Positions 3,369 through 32,091 of a DNA stretch of 51,160 nt are shown here, piece by piece. The stretch is from a plasmid. The notes under the pieces are model-generated. The model was not told where the DNA came from, did no database searches, and was given only the letters and a program-made list of their open reading frames with translations. The translations under genes and the position numbers were made by a program. How positions within the stretch are numbered: position 1 is the stretch's first letter; every line of letters starts with the position of its first letter. The DNA lies in the sequence record NZ_CP115194.1; one strand, written 5' to 3'.

Positions 3369-3474
3369 CCTCAATGCCTGCGCCGGCAGGCCTTTGCGTC
3401 TTGGCTCTGAGAATGAAGCCTCGGAACGGCTGAGATTGAACGTTCCCCAACTGCTTTATAGCTTTGGCGACAGA

Positions 3475-4022: not shown

Positions 4023-4224
4023 GATGGTTACCTGCGGCTCGATTTAAAATTAATCATAATAAATAAAATAGAAGCGTCAAGCATGAATGTCAGATTGAAC
4101 TATACCCTAACCGGATGTCAGATAAGGTCGCGCGGCTCCGTCAGAATAGAGTCCACTTTCGCGTTCTTTGACACATGCCCGCGAAGGTCATAGATTTCAG
4201 CCTGACAAAATCGTTCAGGGCGCA
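4023..4224. promoter_or_regulatory. putative res site / divergent promoter region between parD and tnpR
   Basis: AT-rich 200 bp region, contrasting with the 60% GC surroundings, with repeated TGTCAGAT-like half-sites. It lies where res sits in Tn3-family elements. Confidence 0.4.
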
Positions 4225-4839: not shown

Positions 4840-4909
4840 GCTGCAATGCAGGTAACACCTTCTGTCGCGTAGAACCAACCAGATTCAAAGAGTTTAGCTC
4901 GGACGCTTC

Positions 4910-10368: not shown

Positions 10369-10396
10369 TCGAATGCCCTCAACCCCGTAGCAGCTA

Positions 10397-10946: not shown

Positions 10947-12416
10947 TCACCAATCAGCCAAGGGGGAGTTATCAATCTTAATCCTTTGCTTCCGCTTCTC
11001 CGCTAACTCCCTCAAAGATGCTTCCTTAGATTCCTTTTCCTTGGAGAAAACAAAAGAGGGTAACTGATTTGAATACTGGAATCTTTTGTTCTGCTGATTC
11101 AGACTCTGTATCTGCAACTCCAAAGACTTCTGGTTTTGTTCCGCAAGAAATTGAAGTGTCTTTAAATTATCTTCATCGCCCAAAGCTAGACGAACAGAGT
11201 CCAAGTCATCAAGCTCTAGAGCATTGACCTCAATCATGTCCTGTTGCTGTTGAACCACGTCGACTTGGTCAGTGGCCATATCCACTCGGTTGGATGCCTG
11301 ATTTATCTCGGTCATGATTGATTTTCTACCGTTCCCGGAGAAAGGAATTGTGTCAGCGATCGACTGAATCTCTACAATCCTCCGCCCTCGAGCATATATT
11401 TGATCTACTCTAGCGTTGATTCTCTCCCACTCTGCATCACTTCTCTGGTTCTGCCCTGGATATATATCAAAAATATCCTTATAACTGGCATACAGTGCTT
11501 TCCAGTCCCTGGGACTCAACTTGCGCTTCAGCGACTCCATTTGACGCAGCACCTCGTCATATGCAACGAGAGTCTGCTTATAAAGCCGGAGAGCCTCCGC
11601 AAGCTGCTCTTGGTTCAGGACTGTTGTTTTAATATATTCATCGTAGTTTTTCAGGTCCTGAATATAGCCTTGCTCAGACCACATGGAAGCCAGCCAGTAG
11701 ACAGCCTCAAGCAGAAAAGCAATGAACTCCCAGGCAGTGGAATACTGCCAATACTTTATGCCGTCCCACAGCCCCATATCCTCGAGCTTGACGTTATCAA
11801 AAGCGATCTTTACCCACTGTATGAAGAAGAAGTTATCAGTATTGCCTACTAGGAACGACTGCATCCCCTGAGATATGGCGACCCCGACACCCCACATTGC
11901 GCTCGTGCCATAGTCGTATCCAAGCCAAAAAGCCACCGTTATAGATAACGATACAAAAGCGGCCACCAAGCGCAGTGTATTAAGCCCATCCAAGACGAAT
12001 ATCGTTGCCTCGGAGACAATCAGGACGAAGAAACAGAACCCCAACAGCATCCTGGACCATTGATTCACCGGGTTCGTGTAATCCCCCATGATGCCCACTA
12101 CGAACCGGCTGACTTCACCGGCGAAAACACTTCGGAACGTCTCCGACAGCGCCGCATCCGCCGTAGCAGGAATCACCAGTAGCAGAGGTGAGAAGAACAG
12201 TGCGGCCCAGGCAAGCGACTGGCCACCGATCCTCACCCACCTGCGCTGCCACCACCGCACGCTGGTTCCCGCGCGGCTTGTCATCACCATTGGCAGACTG
12301 GCCAGGGATACCCCGCTCGCCGCCAGCAAGCGAGCGTATCTCCAGCGTGAGAACAGGTAGCCCAGCGCACTGAACATCAGTGCGCACATAACTACCACAA
12401 GCCACATAGTCGACAT
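10947..12416 (-). CDS. chimeric ORF: TrbL/VirB6 N-terminal ~250 aa fused in frame to a TrbJ-like C-terminal ~240 aa
   Basis: The N-terminus is ~97% identical at the DNA level to 9630-10368. The C-terminus is ~75% identical at the amino-acid level to TrbJ at 12986-13837. The junction is at ~11683 with ATAGCC microhomology. Confidence 0.5.
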   Translation of the reverse strand: MSTMWLVVVMCALMFSALGYLFSRWRYARLLAASGVSLASLPMVMTSRAGTSVRWWQRRWVRIGGQSLAWAALFFSPLLLVIPATADAALSETFRSVFAGEVSRFVVGIMGDYTNPVNQWSRMLLGFCFFVLIVSEATIFVLDGLNTLRLVAAFVSLSITVAFWLGYDYGTSAMWGVGVAISQGMQSFLVGNTDNFFFIQWVKIAFDNVKLEDMGLWDGIKYWQYSTAWEFIAFLLEAVYWLASMWSEQGYIQDLKNYDEYIKTTVLNQEQLAEALRLYKQTLVAYDEVLRQMESLKRKLSPRDWKALYASYKDIFDIYPGQNQRSDAEWERINARVDQIYARGRRIVEIQSIADTIPFSGNGRKSIMTEINQASNRVDMATDQVDVVQQQQDMIEVNALELDDLDSVRLALGDEDNLKTLQFLAEQNQKSLELQIQSLNQQNKRFQYSNQLPSFVFSKEKESKEASLRELAEKRKQRIKIDNSPLADW

Positions 12417-12444
12417 TCGAATTCCCTCAACCCCGTAGCAGCTA

Positions 12445-12975
12445 TTACTCGGTAGAGTAAATGGATCCTTCTAAAACTTTGTCCCCACCAATTTCACAGT
12501 ATTTTCTTATAGGACTACCGGCCAACTGCTTTTCACATGGCAAGTAAAAAGAAAGAGAACTACTTAAAGTGCGTCTTCCGAAGATATTCTCCTGAATCCA
12601 GCTGGCTTCTGCCTCCACAGCATTCTTTGTCAGTTCTCCTGGATACGCTTTAGATCCACCATGGGCTTTCTCGTAGATACTCTTTAACTCGATAAGCTTC
12701 GCCACAGCTTGATCCTTGCTCATTCCAGAATAGTTTTTCTTCGAGTAAGCCGAGCTCCCTCTAGGTGGGTATTTTTCATCCGCTTTGTCGGTTATTTTTT
12801 TCTCGCAGGTGCGCCTTTCCCCAACAGTCTTCAAATGAGAGCAGCTAGATCGAGCAGTCTTAAAATACTCTGCCCTCTTCATGTCGTAGCTTTCTTGCGC
12901 CTTATCTATATATCTCTCAACAGCAAAAGCGCTAGTGGACAGCAACATTACGAAAATCAGTGAAAATATTTTCAT
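12445..12975 (-). CDS. secreted Cys-containing protein in the trbK position, allele 2
   Basis: Signal peptide MKIFSLIFVMLLSTSAFA. It keeps the C-terminal block FYLPCEKQLAGSPIRKYCEIGGDKVLEGSIYSTE. Start set at the internal ATG at 12975. Confidence 0.4.
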   Translation of the reverse strand: MKIFSLIFVMLLSTSAFAVERYIDKAQESYDMKRAEYFKTARSSCSHLKTVGERRTCEKKITDKADEKYPPRGSSAYSKKNYSGMSKDQAVAKLIELKSIYEKAHGGSKAYPGELTKNAVEAEASWIQENIFGRRTLSSSLSFYLPCEKQLAGSPIRKYCEIGGDKVLEGSIYSTE

Positions 12976-15132: not shown

Positions 15133-15302
15133 TGTCAACAGCAACTCAGAAGTGACCCACCTTGGTGTTTGAACAGCAATTAGGAATTGACCCACCTGGA
15201 GTGTTTTCTAAGCAGCGGCAGTCCCTAGACACGGGTCAAGGCAGTTGCTGGGCGGCAACCTGATTTGACCCAGGGTCAAGTTCACCTGCTGGTCAGCGAT
15301 TT

Positions 15303-17197
<1,895 letters not shown>

Positions 17198-17220
17198 TCA
17201 TTTTCAATGTGCTGCTGACA

Positions 17221-18500
17221 ACCGCACGCATCGACTTCTTCGCGTAGCCGGGAAGCAGGGTCGGGAATAGCTCTATCAGCCCGGCCGACTCCCATACGGC
17301 CGTGAGGCTACTCTCGGTCAAAGCGGTGTGCATCTCTGCGCACGCGCTCTTGAGCTCAAGCGGATTCTCGTTCCACACCACAACATGCGAGTTATACGAG
17401 CCCCAGCGATCCGGGGTGTTCGCCGCATCATCAAGTTCTTTGACCTTCTTGCGGAGGTGATCGCTGTTTTTGAGCTTTTCCTCCATGCCGCTATTCGGGT
17501 TCTCACCGGTGAGAATCGCAGACAGCTTCATGTTCTGCCGGGCCAACTCGTTCGCCTTGTTCCGCAGCAGCATTGACAGCCCGGCCTTGCTGTACGGCAC
17601 CCAGCGGTTGACTACCAGGTAGTTGCCTTTCTGCATCAGCGGGGAGCGCTGAGTCTGGATCCAGATTCCCTCCGGAACGTAACGACCGCCATAGGCGATG
17701 ATGCTCGCGATCCGCGCGTAAACCGGACGGGGACCGTGGAACTTCAGGCAGGTCATGCCGTCGATCTCGACCGGCTCGATGCCCCCGTTGGAAAGAAGGG
17801 CGTCCCAGTTCTCGACCGGCACCTCCTCATGCACCGCACTGTCGAGCAGTGATGGGTTCATGTTCACCAGGGCTCGGTGAAGCGCCCATAGAGACTGGAG
17901 ATTCATGGTGGAGGACCGAGGCGACACCAGCTCCGACCGGCTGGACAGATCTTTCAGACTCGCCTCAAGGAGGTCGGCCTGACGCTGCAACTGCCGCTCT
18001 TCCGCGATCCATGCGTCATGGTTCCGGAACCGCTGCACCAATAGCAGACGGCTTTCCGCCTCGAAGGGCGCTTGAAACAAGTGCTTCAGCATCCCGACGC
18101 TGAGCAGGTTGTTTACATGTTCCTCCGCCGGGCACTCCAACAGCCAGAACAAGCGCGAGTCATTCAGCCGCTGTGAGTTCAGGAAGCGGGAGCGCCGCTT
18201 CGAAAGCAGGTCACTCCGCGGGTCGTCCCGCTCGCGCAATGCAACCCCTTTACCCTCGAAGTGAAAGTAGTACTGGCAGAGGCTCAGGGATGGGTGGAGG
18301 CTCTGGTAAAGGGCGCGCTGAACACTGGAGAACAATCGCCGATCATGTTCTCCCAGGGCTGTCGGGTCGGTCCCACCCATCTCAATACCGCTCAACAGCG
18401 AACCCGCGTAGGTCAGGCAGAATTTCTTCCACACACCTGCCGAGTACAGCTTGCTGTTCAACGGCTCGACCCGCTTTGGCTCCCCCTGATAGCGCCCCAT
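17221..18500 (-). pseudogene. trbE: VirB4/TrbE ATPase, N-terminal half (interrupted by the IS21-family element; the ORF reads on into the IS terminus)
   Basis: Begins MGRYQGEPKRVEPLNSKLYSAGVWKKF…GSLLSGIEMGGTDP, a VirB4-type N-terminus. The ATG is 2 bp after the pilin-gene stop. Confidence 0.7.
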
Positions 18501-18502
18501 GG

Positions 18503-18838
18503 TTAGATCCCCTGAATCCAGGAGAACAGAAGGGCGATGTTGAACATCACAACCGCGCCAGTCAGCGCACGTCCAACCAGGCCAATTGCCGGCCCGGCCG
18601 ACTTGGGAATGACCACCCACATGAAGTAGGCCAGGACGAACCCGAGGACAGCCACCAGAAGAACTCCAGGGCCACCCAGGAAGTCGACTATCTGCTGCAT
18701 CAGCGCGCCGATCTTCTGCAGCGGGCCGTCGTTCGGCGAGCCAAGATCCACATCGTTGTTCAGAGCCTGCGCCCCAGGACTGATGGCGAGGATGGCCGCC
18801 ATACAGAAGAGCCAGTTTTTCAAGCGAGACACTTTCAT
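18503..18838 (-). CDS. VirB2/TrbC-like pilin
   Basis: Signal peptide ending AQA, followed by two hydrophobic helices (LLVAVLGFVLAYFMWV / AVVMFNIALLFSWI). 111 aa. Confidence 0.5.
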   Translation of the reverse strand: MKVSRLKNWLFCMAAILAISPGAQALNNDVDLGSPNDGPLQKIGALMQQIVDFLGGPGVLLVAVLGFVLAYFMWVVIPKSAGPAIGLVGRALTGAVVMFNIALLFSWIQGI

Positions 18839-18842
18839 CAGA

Positions 18843-19262
18843 TCACTCCTTTTCAGTGAAAGCAGAACCGATAACCGGATCGTTATCGTTCCAGGACAAC
18901 AGCAGAATTCGGCGCTTACGCCCCCCCAACCAGCTCGTGTACACCGCATGATCGAACTTGAGAGGATCCAAGAAATCAGGGGCTGTCAGGCTTTGCAGCC
19001 AAAAAACCCAGGCGTCCGGGTCTTCCTTGTGGATCATGAAGACCGGGATGGTGATCACGAGGCACATGACTGTCCCGACCAAAAGGCCAAGCCAGACCCC
19101 GAACATGTAGAGAGAGCCGAAAAGCGCAATGAGCCCCATACCCATGACCCCTACCCATATTTTGGTGGGGATGCCAAACGACTCCCGCCGCTGGACGAAG
19201 GCGGCTTTGTTCTCGAGATCAGGATTATGCAGCGGCACTTGCGTTGACATTTCTTTCACCAT
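18843..19262 (-). CDS. VirB3/TrbD-like protein with a C-terminal extension
   Basis: Hydrophilic N-terminus with RRESFGIP, then two TM helices and a KEDP motif, which is the VirB3/TrbD topology. It is directly upstream of the pilin and VirB4. Confidence 0.45.
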   Translation of the reverse strand: MVKEMSTQVPLHNPDLENKAAFVQRRESFGIPTKIWVGVMGMGLIALFGSLYMFGVWLGLLVGTVMCLVITIPVFMIHKEDPDAWVFWLQSLTAPDFLDPLKFDHAVYTSWLGGRKRRILLLSWNDNDPVIGSAFTEKE

Positions 19263-19548
19263 CGCCCTCAAACTGCCCCCCTGTCCGCGGGAGGAACTGC
19301 AGAAAAACAGTGTTGTTGCGAATGGCTCCAGGGCACGCCTCTTCCACAAAAGGAAGGGCCACATCCAAGCGAAGCCAGATCCGCTTGTTCCCCTGGAGCG
19401 TCACAACATCAAACGTCTTCTCTTGGTCCGGGAGGCTGACTCTCATCCGCCAACCACGGCGCTCTCCTACCTCGGTTTCAACCAAGAAAACCTTGTAGTG
19501 AGGTGCTGTAGCATCTAGAAACACCAGTTCTCTCTTCGTAAGTGATGC
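19225..19548 (-). CDS. hypothetical small protein upstream of virB3 (doubtful)
   Basis: ORF with an internal Met (MASLTKRELVFLD…). No motifs, and it overlaps the virB3-like start. Confidence 0.2.
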   Translation of the reverse strand, partial: ASLTKRELVFLDATAPHYKVFLVETEVGERRGWRMRVSLPDQEKTFDVVTLQGNKRIWLRLDVALPFVEEACPGAIRNNTVFLQFLPRTGGQFEGDGERNVNASAAA

Positions 19549-19691
19549 CATGTCTTCAAACGCCAGTACCTGTAATGAATGTGGCAAACCTACCATTGCC
19601 ACTGTTGTGTGGCAACAGCTCGTTTTCTGAAACCCCCTACTTTTGAGATACAATCCCCCCATCCACGCCTATTCAACCCCCCCGGATACGA

Positions 19692-19976
19692 ATGAACGAA
19701 CCGCGCAAAAGGCCGACGAAGACTAAGAAGCCGCCAAGAAAAACCCCTCCAACACGGCTGACAATTCCTCAGGACGTACAGGACAGGTCTAACCAACTGT
19801 TTGTTGAGTCCGTGGACGTGAACGAGTTTTTCGGCCAACGGTCGTTGAGCAAGGTTGTAACGGCGTTGCTCGAAATAGCACTTGAACGTGCCGATCAGTT
19901 CGACAGCTCAAAGGTGACGGATAAGGACAGCTTGAAAGTCGAGCTGGAACGCATATTGCGCGGAGATAAGATCTGA
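19692..19976 (+). CDS. small basic protein, putative DNA-binding regulator, divergent from the T4SS operon
   Basis: 94 aa with a Lys/Arg/Pro-rich N-terminus and a helical C-terminus. The intergenic region towards the operon contains overlapping palindromes. Confidence 0.35.
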   Translation: MNEPRKRPTKTKKPPRKTPPTRLTIPQDVQDRSNQLFVESVDVNEFFGQRSLSKVVTALLEIALERADQFDSSKVTDKDSLKVELERILRGDKI

Positions 19977-20104
19977 CGCCGGCAGGGTCTCCAGTAGGAG
20001 ATGGGCGCCTGAGTAAAGGCATTTTTATAGCGGCACAGTGCCGCTACGACAAGGCGACAACTCCTTTCGAAGTTAAAAACTATCTATTCTGATAGCCCCC
20101 TCCC

Positions 20105-20495
20105 CTTCTAATACACCAGGTCCACGGCGCCGGTGGCCATCCCCTGGACGTGATCGAGGTCGACGGGCTCCACCAGGTGCTCGCCGGCCGCGCCGGACGG
20201 ATCCACGCCACCAGGTCCTTGGCGCCGCCGGCGCCGGTGGCCATCCCCTGGAAGTGATCGAGGCCGACGTACTCCACCAGGTGCTCGCCGGCCAGGCCGG
20301 ACGGATCCACGTCACCAGGTGTTCGGCGCCGCCGGCGCCGATGGCCATCCCCTGGACGTGATCGAGGGCGACGGGCTCAACCAACTGCTCGCCGGCCGTG
20401 CCGGACGGATCCGCGGCACCTGGTCCTCGGCGCCGCCGGCGCCGATGGCCACCTGCAGGTCGTGAACCAGGGCGACGCCCCAAGAGCTCGGAGGC
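20105..20495. repeat. tandem array of ~3.7 copies of a 105 bp GC-rich repeat unit
   Basis: Period ~105 bp. The unit core is GGCGCCGCCGGCGCCG-(A/G)TGGCCATCCCCTGGACGTGATCGAGGTCGACGGGCTCCACCAGGTGCTCGCCGGCC. The unit recurs at 21395-21560, 32400-32495, 33883-34123 and 35770-35887. Confidence 0.7.
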
Positions 20496-20579
20496 TTCCT
20501 GCATGCGCGTCAGCCAGCCGGACGAACGGTTGTTTTCATGTAAAATCGCATCCCTACCCTACGTGCTCGAGGACTGAGC

Positions 20580-21149
20580 TTGGCTAAATTTCACGTCGAC
20601 TCTATCCAGGAGTGGCAGTCGTTCGAGCACGACGGCGTAGAGTTCGACCTCGGTCATCTATCGTCGCACCAGGTAGTTTTCAAGAGCGAGAAACAAGACT
20701 ACAAGTTCGTTGTGACTTACGGGCTCCACTGCTTTACGAAAGACGATAGCGGCAACAACATTCCGTACCGGTACGAAGACGGTCGGCATGGGCAAATGGT
20801 CTGCATGGAACGCTACGAGGCCTCCAAGCAGCTCAAGGGCATCATAGAGAAACTGGACTCCGCTACGATCTACCACACGGAAGGCGAGCGCTTTTTCACC
20901 ATGAACATGTTGAACAGCGCTACCGGTCTACTGGAACCGTACAAAGTGTGCCTAGCATTCTTTCGCGAACATCGCTTGCTACGGATTCACGTCACCAGCG
21001 CGTATTTCGCACGCACTGGCGAAGGCTCACCGGATACCCCGATCAACAAAAAGGGATTCAGCATCTACAAGGTCGCGATGGATACGCAAAGAAAGCCGAA
21101 GGGGCAATGCCCCAAGGAAGTACGTAATCGACCGAAAGCGCAAAAATGA
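20580..21149 (+). CDS. hypothetical protein (single-gene cassette, lower GC)
   Basis: 189 aa ORF followed by the hairpin GAATCCCGC-N5-GCGGGATTC. Bounded on both sides by repeat families. Confidence 0.5.
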   Translation: MAKFHVDSIQEWQSFEHDGVEFDLGHLSSHQVVFKSEKQDYKFVVTYGLHCFTKDDSGNNIPYRYEDGRHGQMVCMERYEASKQLKGIIEKLDSATIYHTEGERFFTMNMLNSATGLLEPYKVCLAFFREHRLLRIHVTSAYFARTGEGSPDTPINKKGFSIYKVAMDTQRKPKGQCPKEVRNRPKAQK

Positions 21150-21394
21150 AGGGGCAGAAACGGCGAATCCCGCTCTAGGCGGGATTCTCAGCCGTCGAAA
21201 GTATACGTTCGACGGGGCAGGACACTGTTACCTGGCACTGGGCCATCTGATTGGCATCAGAAGCGGGGTGCGATCCGAAGATCCCTGTAACCACCCTGTG
21301 GTTCACGCTTAAGCGCACACAAAGAATAGTGTGTCCATGGTCACCATGTCAATCATGCTGTCACCTTCTGGATCATCAAGACTCACCCCCAATC

Positions 21395-21790
21395 ATCCCT
21401 CAACGGCTCCACCAGCTGCACGCCGGCCGTGCTGGGTGGATTCACGGCGGCAGGTGCTCGGCGCCGCCGGCGCCGATGGCCATCTCCTGGACGTGATCGA
21501 GGTCGGCGGGATCCACCAGTTGCGCGCTGGCCGTGCCGGCAGGTCACGCGCTCTGTGCTCTTCAAGTGGACCCGCTCGCACCGAGCCGATCCCGGTCAAG
21601 GGCCGCGCTCCCGGCTCGTCGGAACGGCTGCACCGTTCCGGCGAACGGACGCACGGGCGCAGCGCACCCTTGAACGCCTCTCCCCCGAACAGCCTCAGCC
21701 GGGGAGTGTGGGGCAGCTCCTCCGCCCCGCGCTCCCGAGCCCTCGGCGGCAAGAGCGGGATGACAAGGGCAGAGCCCTTGGTGTTCAGAT
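21395..21790. repeat. composite repeat: 105 bp unit (1.5 copies) plus the multi-hairpin element in reverse orientation
   Basis: 21560-21790 is the reverse complement of 32221-32400 and 35584-35760. It includes the GGAACGG-N5-CCGTTCC and CAAGGGC-N3-GCCCTTG stems. Confidence 0.6.
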
Positions 21791-21845
21791 ATGGGGGTTC
21801 CAAGGGGAATCATTCCCCTTGGCCGCACAACGTGCGGAATTGCTC

Positions 21846-22091
21846 TCAGCTTGAAAACCCCTTCATCGGAACAGGGTAGAGATTTGCTCCCACATTTAAG
21901 CCTGCATTGCCTCCGATATGAGAGGCGATGAACTCTGCAACAGGAGGGGTAACGCCAACCCCTATCCCTCGGGAAAGCCCAGACAGTAGCAGGCTCTGGT
22001 GCCTTTCCATCCATTCAGCAAGCTCGATGAGCGCTACCCTGTCTTCCTCAGTCGCTTGCGAATGAAATAGGGTGTTCTCAACATTTTGCAT
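21846..22091 (-). CDS. hypothetical small protein
   Basis: 81 aa. It is preceded by a leader and ribosome-binding site (AACCAGAGAGGT-N-ATGCC-ATG) duplicated from 22326-22376. Confidence 0.3.
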
Positions 22092-22141
22092 GGCATATAC
22101 CTCTCTGGTTTAACTTGGCGGTAGGTTCAGCGCGGAAACCA

Positions 22142-22324
22142 TCAGATGCTTGCAGCGGTGGATGGAGAGGAGCAACCGTCCAGGACGGTGTTTATTGCTG
22201 TGACCCACGAATCGACCGCTTTGGCATTACGTAGCTCCCCTACCCAAATCCTGTCAGGACGCACCCGGAGCATGATACGGATCAGGTCGGGAAGCTCCTT
22301 CGGTAACTCATCAGACTGTTTCAT
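22142..22324 (-). pseudogene. remnant of a second, diverged VirB11-like ATPase allele (internal 60-codon fragment)
   Basis: Its translation MKQSDELPKELPDLIRIMLRVRPDRIWVGELRNAKAVDSWVTAINT is ~75% identical to residues ~205-265 of the intact ATPase at 22393-23430. Confidence 0.5.
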
Positions 22325-22392
22325 GGCATACACCTCTCTGGTTGAAGCTCGTGGCAGGTTCAGCAAGGAAGCGCGCCCTGCCGGGCGCGCAG

Positions 22393-23430
22393 TCAGCAGC
22401 TCGGCTTGAGGTAGATGTGTTCTCCCTTCTCGATGTTGTACTCGAAGACTGGGACGATCTTGCCGTTCTGAATAAGGCAGACGTGCGTGATCTTTCGCCC
22501 ATACAGCCGGTGGTTACGGCTGGCATGGATCAGCATGTGCAGGTCACCCATGAGAATCTTGCCGACCAGGTCGTAATCCATCACGCCCGCCGAAGCCATC
22601 AGGTACTGGCAGCGGTGAATGGAGTCGCCCGGGCCGTTGGAGTGGATGGTTGAGGCGCAACCGTCCAGGCCGGTGTTCATCGCAGTGACCCAAGCATTTA
22701 CCGCTTTGGCATCACGTAGCTCCCCTACCCAGAGGCTGTCAGGACGCTGCCGGAGCGAGATACGGATCAGATCGGAAAGCTCCTTTGGCACCCCGTCAGA
22801 TTGCTTCGAGGCCTCCATCGAAATGCAGTTGGGGAGAGTCGTCCGGAGGTGAAGCTCCATCGTGTCTTCCGCGGTAATGATTCGAGTCGAGGGGTCGAGA
22901 AACTTGGAGACAGCCCGAAGCAAGGTCGTCTTTCCTGAGCCAGTGTTTCCGCTGCACAGGAAGTTGACCCTCTTCGAAACCTGCTCGCCAATGAAGTCGG
23001 CCATCTCCGCACTCATGGCCCCGTAGGAAACCAAGTCCTCCAGGGTGAGCAAACGAGTCGGGGCTTTCCGGAGAGTCACCGTCGCGCCAAATGGAGTGAT
23101 GGCCGGCATGGTTGCACAGATGCGGGACGCATCGGGCAACCGCGCGTTCGTCTCGGGGTCCTTGTGAGGATCCACCAAGTTGAGCGCGTTTGCGCACTGG
23201 GTGATGAACCGCTGGAGGTCAGACTCGCTAGCGAATTTCTCCTCGATTCGAATCATTCGGCTGTTCTTCTCGATGAAGATCGAATCCCAGCCATTGATCA
23301 TGATCTCAGTCACTTCAGGATCGCGATAGTGTTCGAGGATCGGCTTGGCGTAGTGGATCACCGACTCCCACGAGCGTAGAGACTTCGGATCGCTGGGAAC
23401 CGGACCAAATACAGTTTCTGTTAGGCTCAT
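22393..23430 (-). CDS. VirB11/TrbB-like secretion ATPase
   Basis: Walker A GNTGSGKTTL and RIITAEDTMEL (VirB11/PulE family). 345 aa, VirB11-sized. The N-terminal EIMINGWDSIFIE motif is present. Confidence 0.8.
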   Translation of the reverse strand: MSLTETVFGPVPSDPKSLRSWESVIHYAKPILEHYRDPEVTEIMINGWDSIFIEKNSRMIRIEEKFASESDLQRFITQCANALNLVDPHKDPETNARLPDASRICATMPAITPFGATVTLRKAPTRLLTLEDLVSYGAMSAEMADFIGEQVSKRVNFLCSGNTGSGKTTLLRAVSKFLDPSTRIITAEDTMELHLRTTLPNCISMEASKQSDGVPKELSDLIRISLRQRPDSLWVGELRDAKAVNAWVTAMNTGLDGCASTIHSNGPGDSIHRCQYLMASAGVMDYDLVGKILMGDLHMLIHASRNHRLYGRKITHVCLIQNGKIVPVFEYNIEKGEHIYLKPSC

Positions 23431-24185
23431 AATGAATACAGCTCCTCGCAGATGAACCTGAACTTATCGGTGGGATGAACCATCTTGGCAGCATCGAATC
23501 CACCACGATGCTCAGGACTGAGAACAAGCTTTCCTCGCTCGTTTATAACGTACATCGGCCAGATGTTTACTTTGTACTTCTCTTCATAGTTGTTCTTAAG
23601 CTGTTCGCTCGAGAATAGATAGAGAACCTGATCGTAATAACCTTTATGGATGTTCTTGAGGTGCGACAGGTAGATGTTATAAACCCGTCCAACGCTTTTA
23701 TGGTTCAACTCCACTTCTAGAGCGACCTTCTTTCCATTCTTGTACTCGAGAACAGCATCCGGCAAATGGTTGGCCTTCATCTTGGAAAGCTCTTTTTCTG
23801 GCATGAAGCCGGTGATCTCATCCCGTCGCGCCATGATCGCCCCCTGGATGGAGAACGCATGGACCAGCTGGATCCACGACGGCGTTCGCCGTCGTTTGAG
23901 ATCCAGGTGCGGCAGCAGCACCCTTGCCATCTCCATCCCGCTCTGGCTCAGCGAGTAGATTTTCCAGTCGAGCCCCGGCGCCTTGGTCACGACGACCAGG
24001 CGAGACTCCTCGAGGCGTCTGAAGAACACAGTCTGACCTCTGACCTCGGCACCATAGGCCTTGGCCAACAGCGATTGGTTGGAGAAATCGAAGAGGGCGA
24101 GCCACCGCACGACCTCTTTGATTTTTTCCCGGCTCCGCTCCTTACCACGGGATCCGGTCCAACCGTCCATTAGACGCTCAGTCAA
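23427..24185 (-). CDS. hypothetical protein with a possible N-terminal wHTH and a PD-(D/E)xK-like motif
   Basis: 252 aa. Its stop overlaps the ATPase start (ATGA), implying translational coupling. The D…ALEVELNHK segment resembles a nuclease core. The family was not recognised. Confidence 0.45.
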   Translation of the reverse strand: MTERLMDGWTGSRGKERSREKIKEVVRWLALFDFSNQSLLAKAYGAEVRGQTVFFRRLEESRLVVVTKAPGLDWKIYSLSQSGMEMARVLLPHLDLKRRRTPSWIQLVHAFSIQGAIMARRDEITGFMPEKELSKMKANHLPDAVLEYKNGKKVALEVELNHKSVGRVYNIYLSHLKNIHKGYYDQVLYLFSSEQLKNNYEEKYKVNIWPMYVINERGKLVLSPEHRGGFDAAKMVHPTDKFRFICEELYSL

Positions 24186-24235
24186 TCTCTCGCTCCTTAC
24201 TCATCTCCCGACTCCGAACAGCCTGAAGCTGTTCC

Positions 24236-24907
24236 GGCCCTCGGAAACAGCCGCAAGCTGTTTCCGCAGGGCAGTCGGGTACAGGTGTTTGATTACGACG
24301 AGCTTTTGTCGCCGATAGCTGCACAGGGCGGTGAAGCTCTCCGGCTCTTGCGAAACAGCCACAAGCTGTTTCGATTGGGCGCCCTGGCACGCAGTGTAGG
24401 GAACGGCGCTTGACCAAGCGAGCGAGCAAGTCAGCCGCCTGTAAAGGCCGGCGCAGACGATGCGAAGTGAAGCGCAGGGCGAAGCCGTCGAGCGAGGCAA
24501 AGTCGGCGCCCAGCTTTTCCGAAACAGCCAGAAGCTGTTTCGGGGGGAGCCCGGCAACGCGCTTCAGGTGACGACGCTTCGCCGAGCAAGCGAGCGAGCC
24601 CAGCCGCCCGAACGGGTCGGCGAGGGCAATGCGATGCGCGGCGATGGCGGAGCCGTCGAGCGAAGGTCGGCAGGCTCCCCTGCTCTTCGGAACAGCCAAA
24701 AGCTGTTCCGGCTTTTCCGAAACAGCCAGAAGCTGTTTCGGGGGGCGCCCAGTAACTCGGCCCAGGTGACGACGCTTCGCCGAGCAAGCGAGCGAGCCCA
24801 GCCGCCCGAACGGGTCGGCGAGGGCAATGCGATGCGCGGCGATGGCGGAGCCGTCGAGCGAAGGTCGGCAGGCGCCCCGCTCTCCGGAACAGCCAAAAGC
24901 TGTTCCG
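24236..24907. repeat. array of 8 hairpin motifs GRAACAGC-N5-GCTGTTYC, including a ~197 bp tandem duplication (24520-24716 / 24717-24905)
   Basis: Copies at 24236, 24262, 24351, 24522, 24694, 24719, 24743 and 24887. The spacing is irregular. The ORFs called here are artefacts of the repeats. Confidence 0.6.
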
Positions 24908-25214
24908 GCAGCGCGCGGCCCAGTTCGCGTCAGCGAGGTGGGCCGAAACAAACAGAAGCCTGACAGATGCGAGACGCGCCCACGCGGCTCGCAAGGCACC
25001 GAGGCCCCCCAGGGCCGAATGCCGGTCTGCTCCAGGGACGGCCGTCCAGGCCGGGACCTGGAGTGCGAAGCATCAGGCGACGTGCAGCGCGCGCCCGTCT
25101 GCGCTCGACTACTGAAGCCCGCCAGGGCTGAAGTCGGCGAGAGCGGACCCCCGGGTTCCGGGGTGGAGCAGCTGAGCAAGGGACGGGAGAAGGACCGCGG
25201 CGAAGAGTTGCGGG

Positions 25215-25361
25215 CCCCCGGGGGTTGGGGTTCCCCCCCCCCCGGGGGGGGGGGGGGGGGGGAGAGGGGTGGGCCCCCCCCCCGGGGGGGGGCCCCACAG
25301 GGGGGGCGCCTCCGGGGGGGGGGGTTCCCCCCCCCCCGGCCCCCCCCTGGGGGGGGGGGGG
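25215..25361. repeat. tract of alternating long poly-G and poly-C homopolymer runs (up to ~24 nt)
   Basis: Read directly from the sequence, runs such as ccccccccccgggggggggggggggggggg. This is possibly an assembly or sequencing artefact, or else a hypermutable structure-forming tract. Confidence 0.7.
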
Positions 25362-25437
25362 CCCTCTTTACGATAGCGATGCAAGCGGCCTAACGGTGGT
25401 TGCGACTTGGGTAAGGCGCGCCGCAATCATCGTGTTT

Positions 25438-27381
25438 ATGACAGCCCTACCCGTCTTCGCCCTTGCCCTGTTCGTCGTAGCTGTCTATCAGTTCGGCTAC
25501 GATGGTGGCCAGGAATATTGGCTCATCTGGTTTGACATACTGCTCAACAGCCTACGAGACCTGTGGTGGATAGCCGTTCCTTTCTTCGCCCTACCCTTCT
25601 TCGTCAAGATGCTCATTCTCCGGGTCGTTCGCCCGCGCATTTCCGCCGCCTGGCGAAACTGGGGAGTGATGCAATCAGGCGATGCGCTGAGCGACATTCG
25701 CACGGAAGTGAATAGACTCAAGGCCAAGAACTTTCTTCCCAGCAACTACTACAAGGAGGACGAATTTTTCTTCGGCCTAGACGAAAAGAACATCCCCCTA
25801 TATGCCCCGCTGTCGGTCTACGTGAAAACACACATCAAGGCCCTGGGACCATCCCAGACAGGGAAAGGTGTCTTTCTCGGGGTAGAACTCGATCAAGCCA
25901 TTTGGCGTGGCTGGGGTGCATGGTTCATAGACCAAAAACCCGATGACAACATCGTTCACATTATGAGCGAATCTTGTGAGCGCAACGGGCGCCCCGCAAT
26001 GGTTGTGTGCGACTTAACCGGTTCCCGAGAAACGGGCTATCACCCTTTCAAAAACGGCACTAGGCGCGAGCGTCGCGAACGGATCACCAAAGTTTTGGGA
26101 CTTAATGACTCAGGCACTGATGCGGACCATTACAAGAGAAATGCTAGGCGTGTTTTGGATATGCTAATGCCTCATTGGGATGGAACACTTTCCCATCTGG
26201 CAGAGTTGATACAGTACCCGCCAAACTCGCTCACTAGTTCCGAAAAGAATCTCGTAGACAATTTTGGGGGAAACATCGAATCGTCTCTTGTGGAGATGCA
26301 ATTTATCGATGCTCTCGAACCACTTGGCGAGGGACTAAACATTGAGAAAGAATTATTGGCGGGCAGCGTAGTTTATATAAAGTCTGATCTTCAAGACGAC
26401 GTTATACGCAGAGCTGCAAATTGCTTACTTGAAGAAGTAATTCAGGTAGTTCGCCGAATCAGTCTTTCAAGCACCCCCCATAAATATGTGCAACTCACAA
26501 TCGACGAAGCAAGGTTCATGATGACAGACACTCTTGCTAACTCACTGGCAACTGTTTTATCAAAACAACTCCTGATGACTCTCGCCTATCAAGCAAGAGA
26601 AGATCCGCTCAACTTGACAGATAAAACCCTTAACGGAGACTCGATCAAGAACGGTATTGAAACGAATACACAGATCACGATTGTTCATCGGGCTACTGAG
26701 AAAGAAACTGCCCAGTGGATCTCCGACAGTACTGGAGAGGCTCAAAAAAGCATCACCAAAATGGAACGGGTGGAGCGAAATCAAGGCGGGGCTGAAGAGT
26801 GGACTGGCGAGCGCAGTATCGGACAGCAAGCGGAGAACTTCGTCCATACAAATGTGATTCTGGCACTGCCCCCGCGCGTAGCGGTACTCATCATACCGAA
26901 CGTGCTCAGCACGGTCATGTACAGCTGCTGGGTGCCCTACAAGCATGCGCACCCACTCAGCCATTACGTTGCTCTACAGCAGAGCCAGAAGGACGCTCAG
27001 GGTTCCCCGGCTGCCGTCCCCTCCTCTACTGTTCCAGCCGTTCCCGCACCGATAGAAGCGAGTCCTGAGGACATGATCGGTGATGACCCATTCGCAGAGC
27101 TTGACCAGCAACCGGATGACACGATTCTGTTTGACCAGGAGGAAGACCCCTTCGCAGACGCCGACGATATCCCAGTCGCTGCAGAACAACTCCCGCAAGC
27201 AGATGACGGCCCGTCCGGGCTCACCCCGGAGCAACAAGCCATGATCGACGCGGCTGCAAACAATTTGTTCGCTTCTTCTGCCGAGAAGAAGAACAAGACG
27301 ATGAAGCAAGAGAAGAAATCACCTAGCGGCCAGGGCCAAGACGTGGACCTGTCCTCTCTCGACAACGTAGACGGAATCTGA
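25438..27381 (+). CDS. VirD4/TraG-family type IV coupling protein (T4CP) with an acidic C-terminal tail
   Basis: Two N-terminal TM helices. The atypical Walker A LGPSQTGKGVFLGV matches the VirD4/TraG APTRSGKGVG type. FIDQKPDD follows, and the C-terminus is Asp/Glu-rich. Start set at the ATG at 25438, downstream of the G/C tract. Confidence 0.55.
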   Translation: MTALPVFALALFVVAVYQFGYDGGQEYWLIWFDILLNSLRDLWWIAVPFFALPFFVKMLILRVVRPRISAAWRNWGVMQSGDALSDIRTEVNRLKAKNFLPSNYYKEDEFFFGLDEKNIPLYAPLSVYVKTHIKALGPSQTGKGVFLGVELDQAIWRGWGAWFIDQKPDDNIVHIMSESCERNGRPAMVVCDLTGSRETGYHPFKNGTRRERRERITKVLGLNDSGTDADHYKRNARRVLDMLMPHWDGTLSHLAELIQYPPNSLTSSEKNLVDNFGGNIESSLVEMQFIDALEPLGEGLNIEKELLAGSVVYIKSDLQDDVIRRAANCLLEEVIQVVRRISLSSTPHKYVQLTIDEARFMMTDTLANSLATVLSKQLLMTLAYQAREDPLNLTDKTLNGDSIKNGIETNTQITIVHRATEKETAQWISDSTGEAQKSITKMERVERNQGGAEEWTGERSIGQQAENFVHTNVILALPPRVAVLIIPNVLSTVMYSCWVPYKHAHPLSHYVALQQSQKDAQGSPAAVPSSTVPAVPAPIEASPEDMIGDDPFAELDQQPDDTILFDQEEDPFADADDIPVAAEQLPQADDGPSGLTPEQQAMIDAAANNLFASSAEKKNKTMKQEKKSPSGQGQDVDLSSLDNVDGI

Positions 27382-27383
27382 CT

Positions 27384-28193
27384 ATGCCAACTATCTACTC
27401 CGTAATGACGCCCAAAGGCGGCGTCGGCAAGACCACCAGTCTGACCGGGCTGGCCTGCTACATCGCAGGCCAGCTCCAGAAGAAGGTTCTTCTGGTCGAC
27501 CTGGACAACATTGCCAGCCTGACCAACAACTTCCAGGGGGCAGATGTTCGGTACTCGCAGTACAGCAATGTTACGGATCTGTTCGTTGACCCCGACGAAC
27601 AGCGCAAGATCGTGGTGAGCCCTATCTCGGATCGAATCCACCTGATCCAGGGGCACTCGGATATGTCAGCGGTCAACCGCTCTGCCAGCCTCATGGTTCT
27701 GAACCAGCTGGAGGAGAACCTCAAACAGAACGTTCCCGACTTCGAGTCCTATGACTACGTGTTGATCGACACACCAGCCGGCAACGGAAACATCGTGCTG
27801 GCCGCGCTGATAGCTTCGCACCGGGTCTACTCTCCGATCGACCTCGACAACAACGCGATCACCTCCCTCCATGAGCTGGCGAAGATTCTGAAGGTCATTC
27901 GCAACCGCATGAACCCGGACCTGTCCTGGGAAGGATTCCTCATCAACCGAGTACCGAAGCTGGTGAGCTATCTCGGGAAGAAGGTGCCCGAAGCAACGAC
28001 AGAACGGGTTATCTACAACGAGCTGGTCGAGAAGTACCAGGAACGAGCGCTGCTCGGGGTAATCGCGTACCGCAATCCGATCAAGAAGGCTTTCAGCCAG
28101 GGCAAGTGGATTGAGCCGGACAATGACTCGGCTCGAGACGCCCTGGCCGAAGTCGAAGCCTTCTGCAAGAAACTGTTGGAGTCCAAGCAATGA
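27384..28193 (+). CDS. parA: ParA/Soj-family partition ATPase
   Basis: Deviant Walker A KGGVGKTT near the N-terminus. 269 aa. The stop overlaps the downstream gene (ATGA). Confidence 0.85.
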   Translation: MPTIYSVMTPKGGVGKTTSLTGLACYIAGQLQKKVLLVDLDNIASLTNNFQGADVRYSQYSNVTDLFVDPDEQRKIVVSPISDRIHLIQGHSDMSAVNRSASLMVLNQLEENLKQNVPDFESYDYVLIDTPAGNGNIVLAALIASHRVYSPIDLDNNAITSLHELAKILKVIRNRMNPDLSWEGFLINRVPKLVSYLGKKVPEATTERVIYNELVEKYQERALLGVIAYRNPIKKAFSQGKWIEPDNDSARDALAEVEAFCKKLLESKQ

Positions 28194-29212
28194 GTGATGC
28201 CATCGCCGAACTGTTGAACAGCAAATCGTCGGACAACGAACCACGTGAACGGATCGTGCTGATCCACCGCTCCGACCTCTACCCGGACCCGACGCAAGAC
28301 CGTGATGACTGGGAGGCCGAAAGAACTCTCGCCCACATCGCCGGCATCCGCAGGAGTGCGCTGATCCCCCTCGAGGAGGGCCGCCACTACGGAATCCGAA
28401 AAGCTCTTTGGGTGGAACCAGCAGACGAAACAGGGAAGCACAAGATCATCGAGGGAGAATGCCGCTGGAGGGCGACCGAAGACGCTCCGGATGACGTGCA
28501 GCTGCTGCCGTGCATCATCAGTAAAGGTGGCGTTCGCGAACGGCGAATGGACCATGTGACGGGCAACGTCCTCGGCCAGGGGCTGACCGTTTGGCAAACC
28601 GCATGCTCGATCAAGCGGGACAAGGAGGAATTCGGATTCACCACTGAGGAAATCCTTGCGGTACACGGCATCAAGGACAAGTCGCGCCTGAGCCGCTACA
28701 TGAAGGTTTTCAAGCTGAGCCCCGAGGCACAGGAGTTTGCGAAGCTAGATGAATTCCGGGACGTCAACATCATCTACGACCTGGAAAAGCTCGACAAGAT
28801 GGGGCCGGATACCCTGAAGAAGCTGAGCAAGCGCCTGGAGAAAGGGGAAAGCATCCAGACGGCCATCAAGGCGCTGCTGCCGCGTGAAAAAAAGAAATCG
28901 GAGCCGCCGGCGCCGGGGGCAGGGCAGGGGTCAGTTTCAGATTCTGAAACCGGCACCACCCAGCAGCCCTCCAGCGAGGATGGAGCGGCAACCACGGATA
29001 GCGCTTCAACGAGTGACAGCGCCAATACGGCAGCCAGCTCTTCGGGCTCAGTGGTTTCAGATTCTGAAACCAACGGCAGCGCCTCTCTCATGTTGACCCC
29101 GAAGAGAGCCCAAGCCCTGGCCGTACTGCTGAACATCGAACCGGGTGAGGGTGATCTGAGCGCGCTGATCGAGGCGCTTGCTCAAGCCCTGGATGAACTT
29201 GCGGAAAAGTGA
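28190..29212 (+). CDS. parB: ParB-like partition protein with a Ser/Thr/Asp-rich low-complexity linker
   Basis: Translationally coupled to parA. It contains a GGVRERR segment reminiscent of ParB box II, and two 17 bp palindromes inside the coding region. Confidence 0.5.
   Translation: MSDAIAELLNSKSSDNEPRERIVLIHRSDLYPDPTQDRDDWEAERTLAHIAGIRRSALIPLEEGRHYGIRKALWVEPADETGKHKIIEGECRWRATEDAPDDVQLLPCIISKGGVRERRMDHVTGNVLGQGLTVWQTACSIKRDKEEFGFTTEEILAVHGIKDKSRLSRYMKVFKLSPEAQEFAKLDEFRDVNIIYDLEKLDKMGPDTLKKLSKRLEKGESIQTAIKALLPREKKKSEPPAPGAGQGSVSDSETGTTQQPSSEDGAATTDSASTSDSANTAASSSGSVVSDSETNGSASLMLTPKRAQALAVLLNIEPGEGDLSALIEALAQALDELAEK
28934..28950. promoter_or_regulatory. 17 bp perfect palindrome GTTTCAGATTCTGAAAC, a candidate parS/centromere site (copy 1)
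   Basis: Perfect 8 bp arms around a central T. It lies inside the parB-like gene, where it encodes SDSET. Confidence 0.4.
29054..29070. promoter_or_regulatory. 17 bp perfect palindrome GTTTCAGATTCTGAAAC (copy 2)
   Basis: An identical copy 120 bp downstream of the first. Confidence 0.4.
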
Positions 29213-29222
29213 AATAACCCCC

Positions 29223-29654
29223 ATGCCAATTGCCAGAATCGCAACGCTATCCGACTACGTTCCATTCCAGCACGACGGGCGCGCGCTCTATCGTATCCGC
29301 TGGGAAGACGTTTTGTGCCCGGGTAGTCCAACGGACAACCCGGCCGATGGTCTACCCGCCTACAACGCTCACCAGATAGCGGTCGCGGCTGGCAAGCCGA
29401 CGCTGTTCGATGTGTTCGACGACGCAATCGAATGGTGCCTGGCAGGCGAGTCGGTCGATGCGCAACAACTCGCTTCGGACATAGTGAAGCACCACTCACG
29501 CGGCACAGACATTCCCTTGGGTATCGACCAGACCCAAGGGACAACTGTTAGCCGAAATTTTCGTTTTGCGGTCGCCTTCCTCAAGGACCAGATTCGCTCG
29601 CTGCCTCCCAGCAATATCCTGGCCCTAAGAGGAGTAGCTGCGGGTATTAAGTGA
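29223..29654 (+). CDS. hypothetical protein
   Basis: ORF with an internal ATG at 29223, following parB in the same orientation. Confidence 0.4.
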   Translation: MPIARIATLSDYVPFQHDGRALYRIRWEDVLCPGSPTDNPADGLPAYNAHQIAVAAGKPTLFDVFDDAIEWCLAGESVDAQQLASDIVKHHSRGTDIPLGIDQTQGTTVSRNFRFAVAFLKDQIRSLPPSNILALRGVAAGIK

Positions 29655-30262
29655 TGGAAAAGAAGAACGTTCCTGGTAACAAGAAAGCTGCCAACACCGT
29701 CATTACGGTTCACGACAAGTTCGTGGTTGGGATATGGGAAACCTCCTCGCGCAGGATCTCCGGGCGGGTGGTGGTCGATAGCCTATTCTCCGTCGAGTCG
29801 TTCAGCACGACAAAGAAGCCTGAGCATTTGGTCGCCAAAACACTGGCCAAAAAGGTCATTCCAGGCCTGCGGGAAATCATCGAGAGCTACGAGGCCAAGT
29901 TGACCGAAACCCTGAAGACTATCAGGGATGAGGTCAACGAACGCATGGCCGACCCTCTGCTCAAGAGCATCGAGTTCGGCGCGCCTCAAGAGCAGACCTA
30001 TGAATTGGTGGTAGATGGTCGCCACTCCTGGCCCCTGGTCAATCGTTTCGTCCGATCAATCGTCCTCGTCGATGAGATTTCTCAGGCGCTTCGCCAAATG
30101 TACCTGTCCGGCTTCATCGACTACGGCGAATACAAGAAACGTGAGAAGAAGGCGGCCAAACCGATATGGCAATGCATGACCCGACTCGATGAAGTGATAA
30201 AGCACTACCACCAGCAACGTAAGCAGATCGCGGCGATCACTACCGCGGCGAAAGTCGGTTGA
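29651..30262 (+). CDS. hypothetical protein
   Basis: 203 aa. It overlaps the upstream stop by 4 bp. Confidence 0.45.
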   Translation: MMEKKNVPGNKKAANTVITVHDKFVVGIWETSSRRISGRVVVDSLFSVESFSTTKKPEHLVAKTLAKKVIPGLREIIESYEAKLTETLKTIRDEVNERMADPLLKSIEFGAPQEQTYELVVDGRHSWPLVNRFVRSIVLVDEISQALRQMYLSGFIDYGEYKKREKKAAKPIWQCMTRLDEVIKHYHQQRKQIAAITTAAKVG

Positions 30263-30270
30263 GGTGAGCA

Positions 30271-32091
30271 ATGGGCAATCTTCTGATCGTAGAGTCACCG
30301 GCAAAAGCGAAGACCTTCGAGGGCTATCTTGGGCCCGGCTGGGAGGTCAAGGCCTCTTTCGGCCATATTCGGGATCTCCCGGAACATGAAATGGGGGTCG
30401 CAGGTCCTGAATACCGCCCTGACTATGTATTCATAGGGGAGGGCAAGAAAGTATCCGAAGTCCTGAAGAACGCAGCCAGGCGAGCGCTAAGCTCAGGCGG
30501 AGCGGTCTACTTGGGATCCGACGACGATAGGGAAGGGGAGGCGATTGCCTGGCACCTCCAGCAAGTCCTCGGCCTGCAGGATCCCAAGCGCATCACCTTC
30601 GGGGAGATCTCGAAGAAGGAGATTCTTCGCGCGGTCGCAGAACCTCGAAAGATCAATGTGAGATTGGTCGCCGCTCAAGAGGCCCGCAGGATCCTCGACA
30701 GGATCGTTGGCTACTACATCAGCCCGATCGTCCAGGAACTGATGGCAACGTACGACTACTCGGCCGGTCGAGTGCAGAGCGTCGCGGTGTTACTCGTTGT
30801 GGAACGCGAAAATCTCATCCGCGCCCACACTGCGGTTACGCATCACTCGGCACGCTTCGCCTTCCAGGGCGGTTGGTCCGCTGACTGGGCACCTGATGAG
30901 AAATGCACCGACCTGGCCACTGCGGAGCGTATTGCGAACGCTCGGCAGTTTACAGTCCTCGAGCACTCCGTTGGTGAGTCCAGGTCCTCGCCGTTCAAAC
31001 CGTTCATCACATCTACGCTTCAACAGGCGGCCAGTAACGCGCTCAATCTGCGGTCCAAGGCCTGTATGGAGGCGGCGCAGAAGCTGTACGAGGCGGGTCA
31101 CATCACATATATGCGCACCGACAACCCGAACCTCACCGACGATATGCTGGTGGCCGTTCGGGATTATTGTGCCGCTCAGAATCTCCCGCTGTCTGACGAA
31201 CCCAGGACCTGGAAGGCGAAAGCGGACGCTCAGGAGGCACACAAGGGGATCCATCCTACCGACATTACTCGGCTTGAAGCAGGAGAAGACGAGGCCCAGC
31301 GCAAGCTGTATCAACTGATCTGGAAGCGGACGGTCGCCTGTCAGATGGCGGATGCCGTGTTCAAGGTTACCAAGGTCAAGTTGAAGCCCGAGGGATTGGA
31401 TGGGACAGTGGCTGTAGCTGGTGAGCATAGCGAGCTGGTCAGCCCCGGCTACAAGACAATCCTGGCCGAGGATGACGCCGAGGACAAACCAGACGAAGTA
31501 TCGCGCACGACAGGGGCGATTCCGCCGATCGAGACAGGCGCATCCCTTACCGCGACTTCCGGTGAGGTCGTCACGACAAAGACGAAAGCAGCACGCCGTT
31601 TCACCGAGGCCTCGTTGGTGAAGGAGCTGGAGAGCCGCGGGATCGGAAGGCCTTCGTCGTTTGCCGCAATTATGGAAAACATTTCCAAGACCCGGCGCTA
31701 TGTCCAATTGAAGAAGGGGACGAAGTTCCTGGAGCCTACTGACCGTGGCGAGAAACTGGTCCAGGTGCTTCTAAACCGGTTCAGCTTTATGGACGTGGAT
31801 TTCACCAGGGAACTTGAACGCAAGTTGGACGAAATAGCAAAGGGTACTGCGAATTATCGATCAGTTATAGCGGGCTTCGATCAACAGTTGCAGGACGAAA
31901 TTGCGAAGCTGCTTCGAGAGATAGAACCACTTCACCCTTGTCCAAAATGTGGACGCGGACTTCTGCTGATCGAGAAGAAGAAGGAGAAGGGTAAGGAAGC
32001 CAGCGCGTTCTTTGGATGCCGAGGCTTCTTCGATAAGAAGTGTGACGGAATATATCCGGCAAAGGACGGAGCACCAGTAATACAGCAGTGA
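30271..32091 (+). CDS. topA: type IA DNA topoisomerase (plasmid/ICE-type TopA)
   Basis: Toprim N-terminus MGNLLIVESPAKAKTFEGYLG, the DxDxEGE motif (DDDREGEAIAWH), and a C-terminal zinc ribbon CPKCGRG…CRGFFDKKC. Confidence 0.85.
   Translation: MGNLLIVESPAKAKTFEGYLGPGWEVKASFGHIRDLPEHEMGVAGPEYRPDYVFIGEGKKVSEVLKNAARRALSSGGAVYLGSDDDREGEAIAWHLQQVLGLQDPKRITFGEISKKEILRAVAEPRKINVRLVAAQEARRILDRIVGYYISPIVQELMATYDYSAGRVQSVAVLLVVERENLIRAHTAVTHHSARFAFQGGWSADWAPDEKCTDLATAERIANARQFTVLEHSVGESRSSPFKPFITSTLQQAASNALNLRSKACMEAAQKLYEAGHITYMRTDNPNLTDDMLVAVRDYCAAQNLPLSDEPRTWKAKADAQEAHKGIHPTDITRLEAGEDEAQRKLYQLIWKRTVACQMADAVFKVTKVKLKPEGLDGTVAVAGEHSELVSPGYKTILAEDDAEDKPDEVSRTTGAIPPIETGASLTATSGEVVTTKTKAARRFTEASLVKELESRGIGRPSSFAAIMENISKTRRYVQLKKGTKFLEPTDRGEKLVQVLLNRFSFMDVDFTRELERKLDEIAKGTANYRSVIAGFDQQLQDEIAKLLREIEPLHPCPKCGRGLLLIEKKKEKGKEASAFFGCRGFFDKKCDGIYPAKDGAPVIQQ

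Follow-up and report, generated by a model that had tools for sequence, protein, structure and literature searches.

In the contingency loci of Neisseria, Haemophilus, Campylobacter, and Helicobacter, a G/C homopolymer lies at the 5' end or in the promoter of a gene, where it is prone to slipped-strand mispairing. Such a locus has a single tract, usually of less than ~20 nt, that occupies the same position in related strains and varies in length, while the gene is otherwise intact. In promoter G-quadruplex/i-motif elements, one strand carries four or more G runs, each no shorter than 3 nt, and the other carries C runs. Homopolymers of both bases can also come from the bench, as the dG:dC tailing method of cloning leaves G/C homopolymer tails of 10 to 30 nt. 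A further source is the sequencer: two-color Illumina chemistry calls missing signal as G, which yields poly-G tails (PMC6129281). Here, we compare with these systems a G/C homopolymer mosaic found at the 5' end of the type IV coupling protein (T4CP) gene in a plasmid record, and we conclude that it is almost certainly a problem of record quality, not biology.

The stretch of DNA analyzed here (the window) is the whole 51,160-nt record NZ_CP115194.1. It is an RP1-1-type plasmid of Pseudomonas aeruginosa in the form of a complete circle. Its nearest relative, which it matches almost throughout, is pF052_2 (NZ_CP115229.1; 46,934 bp), from a cystic fibrosis lung isolate in Denmark. Positions 51160 and 1 are adjacent in pF052_2, indicating that the window is the whole circle. 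A megablast search of plasmid records found 26 P. aeruginosa plasmids that share the region, including RP1-1 (LC700336.1). Unfiltered megablast alignment to pF052_2 gave identities of 99.9% for 17221-25222 on the left of the mosaic and, on its right, 100% across 5,660 nt (25370-31029) followed by 99.985% across 20,131 nt (31030-51160). The two plasmids are collinear except for three differences: a 2,846-bp insert, a 2,088-bp insert, and the mosaic itself.

The mosaic, hereafter the tract, is 147 nt long (25223-25369) and has no counterpart in the relatives, as seen by megablast against pF052_2 without the low-complexity filter, by alignment, and in a table of homopolymer runs. Its main runs lie within 25233-25361 and are, in order, C11, G19, C10, G9, G7, G11, C11, C8, and G13. 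Smaller runs of 3 to 5 nt are found within 25215-25296, with C5, G5, and G4 ahead of the main block and G4, G3, and C4 between the main runs, and the G+C content of 25215-25361 is 91%. All homopolymers of at least 9 nt in the 51,160-nt window fall inside 25233-25361 (G19, G13, G11, and G9; C11, C11, and C10), and G or C runs in the rest of the window reach 7 nt at most. Under an independent-base model with the base frequencies of the window itself, a G run of at least 11 nt is expected 0.035 times per window, a C run of at least 11 nt 0.055 times, and a G run of at least 19 nt 1.5e-6 times. Since the long homopolymers are confined to one stretch and the longest of them has so low an expectation, the tract is confirmed and beyond chance. 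The original prediction, which placed extreme G and C runs next to the coupling-protein gene, was right about the runs and their location but overstated their maxima (19 G, not 24, and 11 C, not 12), and the tract in fact replaces the 5' end of that gene.

The flanks match pF052_2 and RP1-1 up to the junctions, and the locus is the same. At this locus, megablast and alignment show that the 147 nt stand where pF052_2 has 868 bp (pF052_2 5661-6528). These native 868 bp are found in one piece, at 91.8 to 100% identity, in all 26 related plasmid records. Another 20 contigs encode an identical copy of the 167-aa neighbor gene and sort into two gene arrangements. We compared the sequence of two of the 20, one per arrangement and from independent draft genomes, and both have a 706-aa T4CP, the usual 1,015-bp spacing, and a native segment that is 99.8% identical. 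Neither the 26 plasmid relatives nor these two sibling contigs have any G or C run longer than 6 nt at the locus.

As seen in pF052_2 and RP1-1, the native segment contains a G+C-rich cluster of hairpins (for example, ACACCCCCGGAG/CTCCGGGGGTGT and TGATGCCAGCA/TGCTGGCATCA), an A+T-rich stretch of 30% G+C, five copies of a perfect palindrome, TTTCAGAWTCTGAAA, and the first 111 nt of the T4CP gene. Compared with an intact T4CP upstream region of the RP1-1 type, the window thus lacks the hairpin cluster, the A+T-rich stretch, all five palindromes, and T4CP codons 1 to 37. A consensus promoter scan detected no promoter in the native segment or in the window's version of it, and we therefore claim no mapped promoter, just the loss of the whole upstream region. 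Literature searches on the RP1-1 and pMOS94 lineages turned up no account of the intergenic region. Repeats shared between the native 868 bp and the rest of the plasmid do not exceed 41 nt, and nothing obvious in the segment accounts for an assembly break.

Two other origins of the tract within the plasmid were tried and rejected. Relocation of the native segment is ruled out by a search of the window, in which just two known palindrome copies match it. As for the possibility that the tract is the native 868 bp in scrambled form, a MAFFT alignment of the two looked suggestive, but the local alignment score of 27 is ordinary. Sequences with the run order shuffled score 22.8 +/- 2.7, and 23 of 300 reach the observed value, as do 54 of 314 other plasmid windows. 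We reject this origin for the bulk of the tract, the weak in-register signal being limited to its first ~40 nt.

The two junctions differ in shape. On the left, the sequence is already degraded ahead of the tract, at 25147-25222. Within the nearest 6 kb, every departure from pF052_2 falls in this stretch: one nucleotide is deleted at 25147, four are inserted at 25185-25188, and positions 25206, 25214, 25215, and 25220 are substituted. In the 8,003-nt block to the left of the tract, the sole other mismatch to pF052_2 is at 19104, and the remainder all fall within the last 75 nt. Counted in the same register per 15 nt toward and into the tract, identity goes from 100% to 80%, 40%, 47%, and 53% and then to 13 to 27%. 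The commonest change is A-to-G, with 9 of the 25 substitutions in 25206-25260. The template can be followed a short way into the tract itself: 21 of 45 positions match in register at 25219-25263, compared with 12.7 +/- 3.4 at other offsets, and an offset does as well in 1.7% of cases within the locus and in 0.56% across the plasmid. This signal inside the tract is modest but consistent, and past ~25264 the template is no longer recognizable. On the right, the junction is abrupt, with junk up to 25369 and 100% identity starting at 25370. Recombination or deletion would give two clean edges; a fade on one side only is just what a base-caller yields when it loses its template.

What remains of the T4CP gene is codons 38 to 706 and the stop codon, on the plus strand at 25370-27381, 100% identical to pF052_2 and with a Pfam match to TraG-D_C. 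In the relatives, the 706-aa product is annotated as a TraM recognition domain protein or as cpl, and its ATG belongs to the missing segment, 111 nt ahead of the right junction. The native protein starts with the 37 residues MEFLRIVMEQTDPWAPMLVSLFLGLMLALSVGGAIHH and goes on with DSDASGLTVV, and the reading frame of the window comes out of the tract directly at DSDASG. A full-length coupling protein of the VirD4/TraG/TraD-like family combines an N-terminal membrane anchor with a C-terminal TraG-D_C/NTPase region. The T4CP of the record retains its C-terminal TraG-D_C domain, but the tract has taken the place of residues 1 to 37, among them the first hydrophobic segment (MLVSLFLGLMLALSVGGAI); with this N-terminal anchor gone, the protein is not a full-length member of its family. 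Mechanical translation extends the frame upstream to a TTG codon inside the tract (ORF 25225-27381, reading MGFPPPRGGGGGGEGWAPPPGGG...), and its plus-strand 5' extension at 25225-25369 gives a poly-Gly/Pro N-terminus, MGFPPPRGGGGGG..., that is spurious. The original prediction had said as much of an ORF start within the tract, and the position of the real ATG bears it out. For the 718-, 661-, and 647-aa versions of the ORF, no gene product with a poly-Gly/Pro N-terminus or a truncated T4CP is on record, and the right junction has no exact match in viral, genome, or metagenome contigs.

The upstream neighbor of the tract is an intact plus-strand gene for a 167-aa hypothetical protein (24460-24963); in the relatives, 1,015 bp separate this gene from the start of the T4CP gene downstream. 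Beyond it, a 252-aa gene without a Pfam match (minus strand, 23427-24185) is transcribed away from the tract. Annotations of this region in RP1-1 include tivB11, rlx, and cpl (type IV coupling protein); the 252-aa gene is the one annotated there as rlx (relaxase), and by that annotation it provides a putative transfer-region context for the locus.

Mosaics of the same kind are found well outside Pseudomonas plasmids. Scanning one genome per bacterial and archaeal species for a C11G15 core, we found it in at least 120 contigs of unrelated taxa, among them Streptomyces, Sphingomonas, Pseudomonas, Mycobacterium, and many metagenome bins. Names of the contigs among the matches listed suggest several assemblers, including SPAdes-style NODE_, MEGAHIT-style k141_, and tig names. 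Like the tract, these mosaics switch between G and C runs and include an occasional A or T, as in a contig that contains ...GGGGGGGGGGGGCCCCaCaaCCCCGGGGGGGGGGGGGG..., and their median length among the matches listed is 60 nt, most being no longer than ~210 nt and thus at most roughly one read. In 68 of 120 matches listed (57%), the mosaic is found no more than 300 nt from the end of its contig, compared with 4.7% expected under uniform placement. In the other 52 of the 120 listed, it is internal to the contig, as in the window, which shows that such junk does enter contig interiors. The largest mosaic among the matches listed spans 2,250 nt with 56 runs of at least 7 nt in a MAG contig (JADJQU010000031.1, 98306-100555), and the "tig" name of this contig suggests a long-read assembler, so the artifact class is not restricted to short-read contig ends.

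Taken together, the absence of an orthologous counterpart, the displacement of 868 bp that 26 of 26 relatives conserve, the gradual, read-like rise of errors toward the tract, and the recurrence of the same mosaics at unrelated contig ends indicate that the tract is very probably a sequencing or assembly artifact. Judging from the assembled sequence and not from reads, we put the probability of this non-biological origin at about 0.88. It was one of two alternatives in the original prediction, together with the worry that the sequences on either side might not be contiguous. That worry proves only half right: both flanks keep their proper order and orientation in the plasmid, but the 868 bp between them are lost.

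How the artifact arose can be outlined as follows. One or a few low-quality reads would have started in genuine sequence near 25150-25200, with base-calling fidelity dropping progressively until it gave G-only and C-only runs that extended the genuine contig end to the right. During gap closure, circularization, or polishing, an assembler or polisher may then have used this junk to bridge a gap or to circularize to the other genuine end at 25370. The outcome would be a closed circle of 51,160 bp in which 147 nt of filler take the place of ~868 bp of backbone, the latter comprising the hairpin-rich intergenic region, five palindromic, putative protein-binding-type sites, and T4CP codons 1 to 37. 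If this outline is right, the native segment, or some other real sequence, would be physically present in the isolate.

In several respects, the tract is like the poly-G tails of two-color instruments (NextSeq/NovaSeq), where G is over-called, A-to-G is the commonest error, and the junk is no longer than about one read. In such reads, signal loss would be called as G, and reads of the opposite strand would supply the C runs. The A-to-G bias fits this chemistry, and we consider it plausible, at roughly even odds, that the reads came from a two-color, Illumina-type instrument. However, the tract differs from poly-G tail junk in being internal to a closed circular record and in alternating repeatedly between G and C; pure two-color signal loss predicts poly-G tails and does not explain in detail the several alternations within 147 nt, in runs that fall short of the usual assembly k-mers. 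Mosaics of this sort are present in at least 120 unrelated assemblies, and 57% of the matches listed are no more than 300 nt from an end.

Other explanations differ in what they take the tract to stand for. The junk could mask a real structural change, such as a true 868-bp deletion or a mobile-element insertion that the assembly failed to resolve, which is compatible with the tract itself being junk; the absence of the native segment would then be more than an omission from the record. Insertions into this backbone do happen, since the window has gained two mobile elements relative to pF052_2 (3331-6176 and 15133-17220), and the native segment has no repeat or extreme composition that alone would open a coverage gap. 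However, native sequence would normally persist up to the insertion point on either side of an unresolved element, whereas here all 868 bp are absent; the segment is kept in all 26 relatives and both sibling contigs compared, and no positive evidence points to an extra element. We therefore regard a hidden structural change as rather unlikely. A laboratory origin fares worse. The run lengths do recall the 10- to 30-nt tails that terminal transferase adds in dG:dC tailing, and the tract would then be a scar at a cloning junction. Yet tailing leaves one run per junction and not nine alternating runs, the left junction is gradual and not clean, and the remainder of the molecule is free of vector sequence: it is a natural plasmid of clinical type that, but for the two mobile elements, runs collinear with pF052_2. 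Such a scar is scarcely credible.

The other alternative in the original prediction was a genuine G-quadruplex/i-motif tract, hypervariable by slippage, in the promoter of the T4CP gene and at its 5' end. As a physically real element, it could act as a hypervariable conjugation switch. One strand of the tract does have G runs of at least 3 nt, four or more of them joined by short loops, a property that is trivial for any G-run mosaic, so that formally the tract could form a G-quadruplex, an i-motif, or very stable hairpins, with a predicted single-strand minimum free energy of -77 kcal/mol. Against shuffled sequence, this stability does not stand out (z = -1.7). Moreover, unlike promoter G-quadruplex/i-motif elements, the tract has adjacent complementary C and G runs that would favor hairpins or duplex, and it has displaced the native upstream region and does not form part of it; the motif is absent from all the relatives compared, where such an element would be conserved. 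The reading frame is open throughout the tract, but this is uninformative because stop codons need A and T, which are nearly absent there. The comparison with contingency loci fails in a similar way. Both share a slippage-prone G/C homopolymer where a gene begins or in its promoter, but the tract has nine runs, none of which occurs in any relative, there is no positional counterpart of variable length, and the gene is damaged in other ways, since the 868 bp lost contain its start codon. A real element would also have removed the first hydrophobic (transmembrane) segment and the entire upstream region of the gene that it is meant to control, in a locus where the relatives have no tract at all and no G or C run above 6 nt. 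The read-decay errors in the flank and the same-looking mosaics at contig ends of unrelated taxa argue in the same direction, and we know of no bacterial mechanism that adds untemplated alternating G and C runs. A physically real tract is therefore very improbable. The same holds for its most specific form, in which a deletion of the T4CP upstream region, a possible transfer origin, and the 5' end of the gene was healed by ~150 nt of untemplated G/C homopolymers, and which we consider highly doubtful. If the tract were real, it would imply template-independent or runaway-slippage synthesis new to Pseudomonas, and a plasmid locked out of conjugation.

Under the artifact reading, the consequences are for the use of the record. 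The plasmid looks closed, yet ~868 bp of its conserved backbone are missing and 147 nt of its sequence are invented. An annotator that starts the T4CP gene in the tract creates a fake poly-Gly/Pro N-terminus, one that chooses a downstream start creates a truncated gene, and either misannotation could falsely suggest a transfer-defective plasmid or a novel T4CP variant. Counts of TTTCAGAWTCTGAAA sites taken from this record are likewise wrong, with 2 instead of 7. The artifact class is widespread, given at least 120 contigs among the public reference genomes scanned and 52 internal cases among the matches listed. A filter for adjacent C and G runs, each of at least 10 nt, would flag such sites in large-scale scans.

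The placement of the tract in the record was also noted. Its center (25288) lies 292 nt from the midpoint (25580) of the circular record, and the chance of being that near is ~1.1%. In addition, the record starts inside a gene, a YadA-like CDS in pF052_2. These are hints, seen post hoc and given little weight, that would fit a contig circularized at its junk-bearing ends and then rotated by half its length. The midpoint itself is clean sequence, and the fit to a half-length rotation is inexact.

The palindrome lost with the native segment is a feature of the backbone in its own right. This perfect 15-nt sequence, TTTCAGAWTCTGAAA, has seven copies in pF052_2, compared with 0.09 expected. Five of the copies are at 5858-6126 in pF052_2, spaced 45 to 81 nt apart just upstream of the T4CP-ParA operon, and the other two are at 1961-2095, spaced 120 nt apart inside a 340-aa ORF downstream of parA. 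The only two in the window are at 28935-28949 and 29055-29069, both within ORF 28190-29212, and the five that it lacks are those of the missing segment. The copies look like a set of putative operator or centromere sites for a plasmid DNA-binding protein.

Another repeated sequence lies on the left side of the tract and is shared with pF052_2. A 198-bp unit is present in two tandem copies (95% identical) at 24513-24909, inside the 167-aa hypothetical ORF, and each unit bears hairpins such as GAAACAGCCAGAAGCTGTTTC. With the rlx-like gene on one side and the T4CP upstream region on the other, the repeat may be cis-acting DNA, such as a transfer or replication origin, and not coding.

The two inserts that distinguish the window from pF052_2 are of different families. 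The one at 3331-6176 (2,846 bp) ends in terminal inverted repeats (GGGGAGCCC.../...GGGCTCCCC), and the target sequence duplicated is TTCAT (5 bp). Its cargo consists of small ORFs without assigned function and a Tn3-family transposase that is incomplete (410 aa, DDE_Tnp_Tn3), and because the transposase is only partial, we classify the insert as a defective Tn3-family element. Its final 126 nt also match pF052_2 31032-31157. The other, at 15133-17220 (2,088 bp), is an IS21-family insertion sequence that encodes IstA (rve; 16106-17176) and IstB (15303-16106), with ends TGTCA.../...TGACA and a 4-bp target duplication, ACCG. A 948-bp paralogous repeat has copies at 9616-10563 and 11664-12611. In the 9-kb block concerned, the window and pF052_2 differ by 21 substitutions, every one of which falls in a 330-nt patch (12041-12371) of the second copy. 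The patch is identical to the other repeat copy in pF052_2, whereas the two copies differ in the window, a pattern that would fit either gene conversion in pF052_2 or a repeat-polishing artifact in the pF052_2 record.
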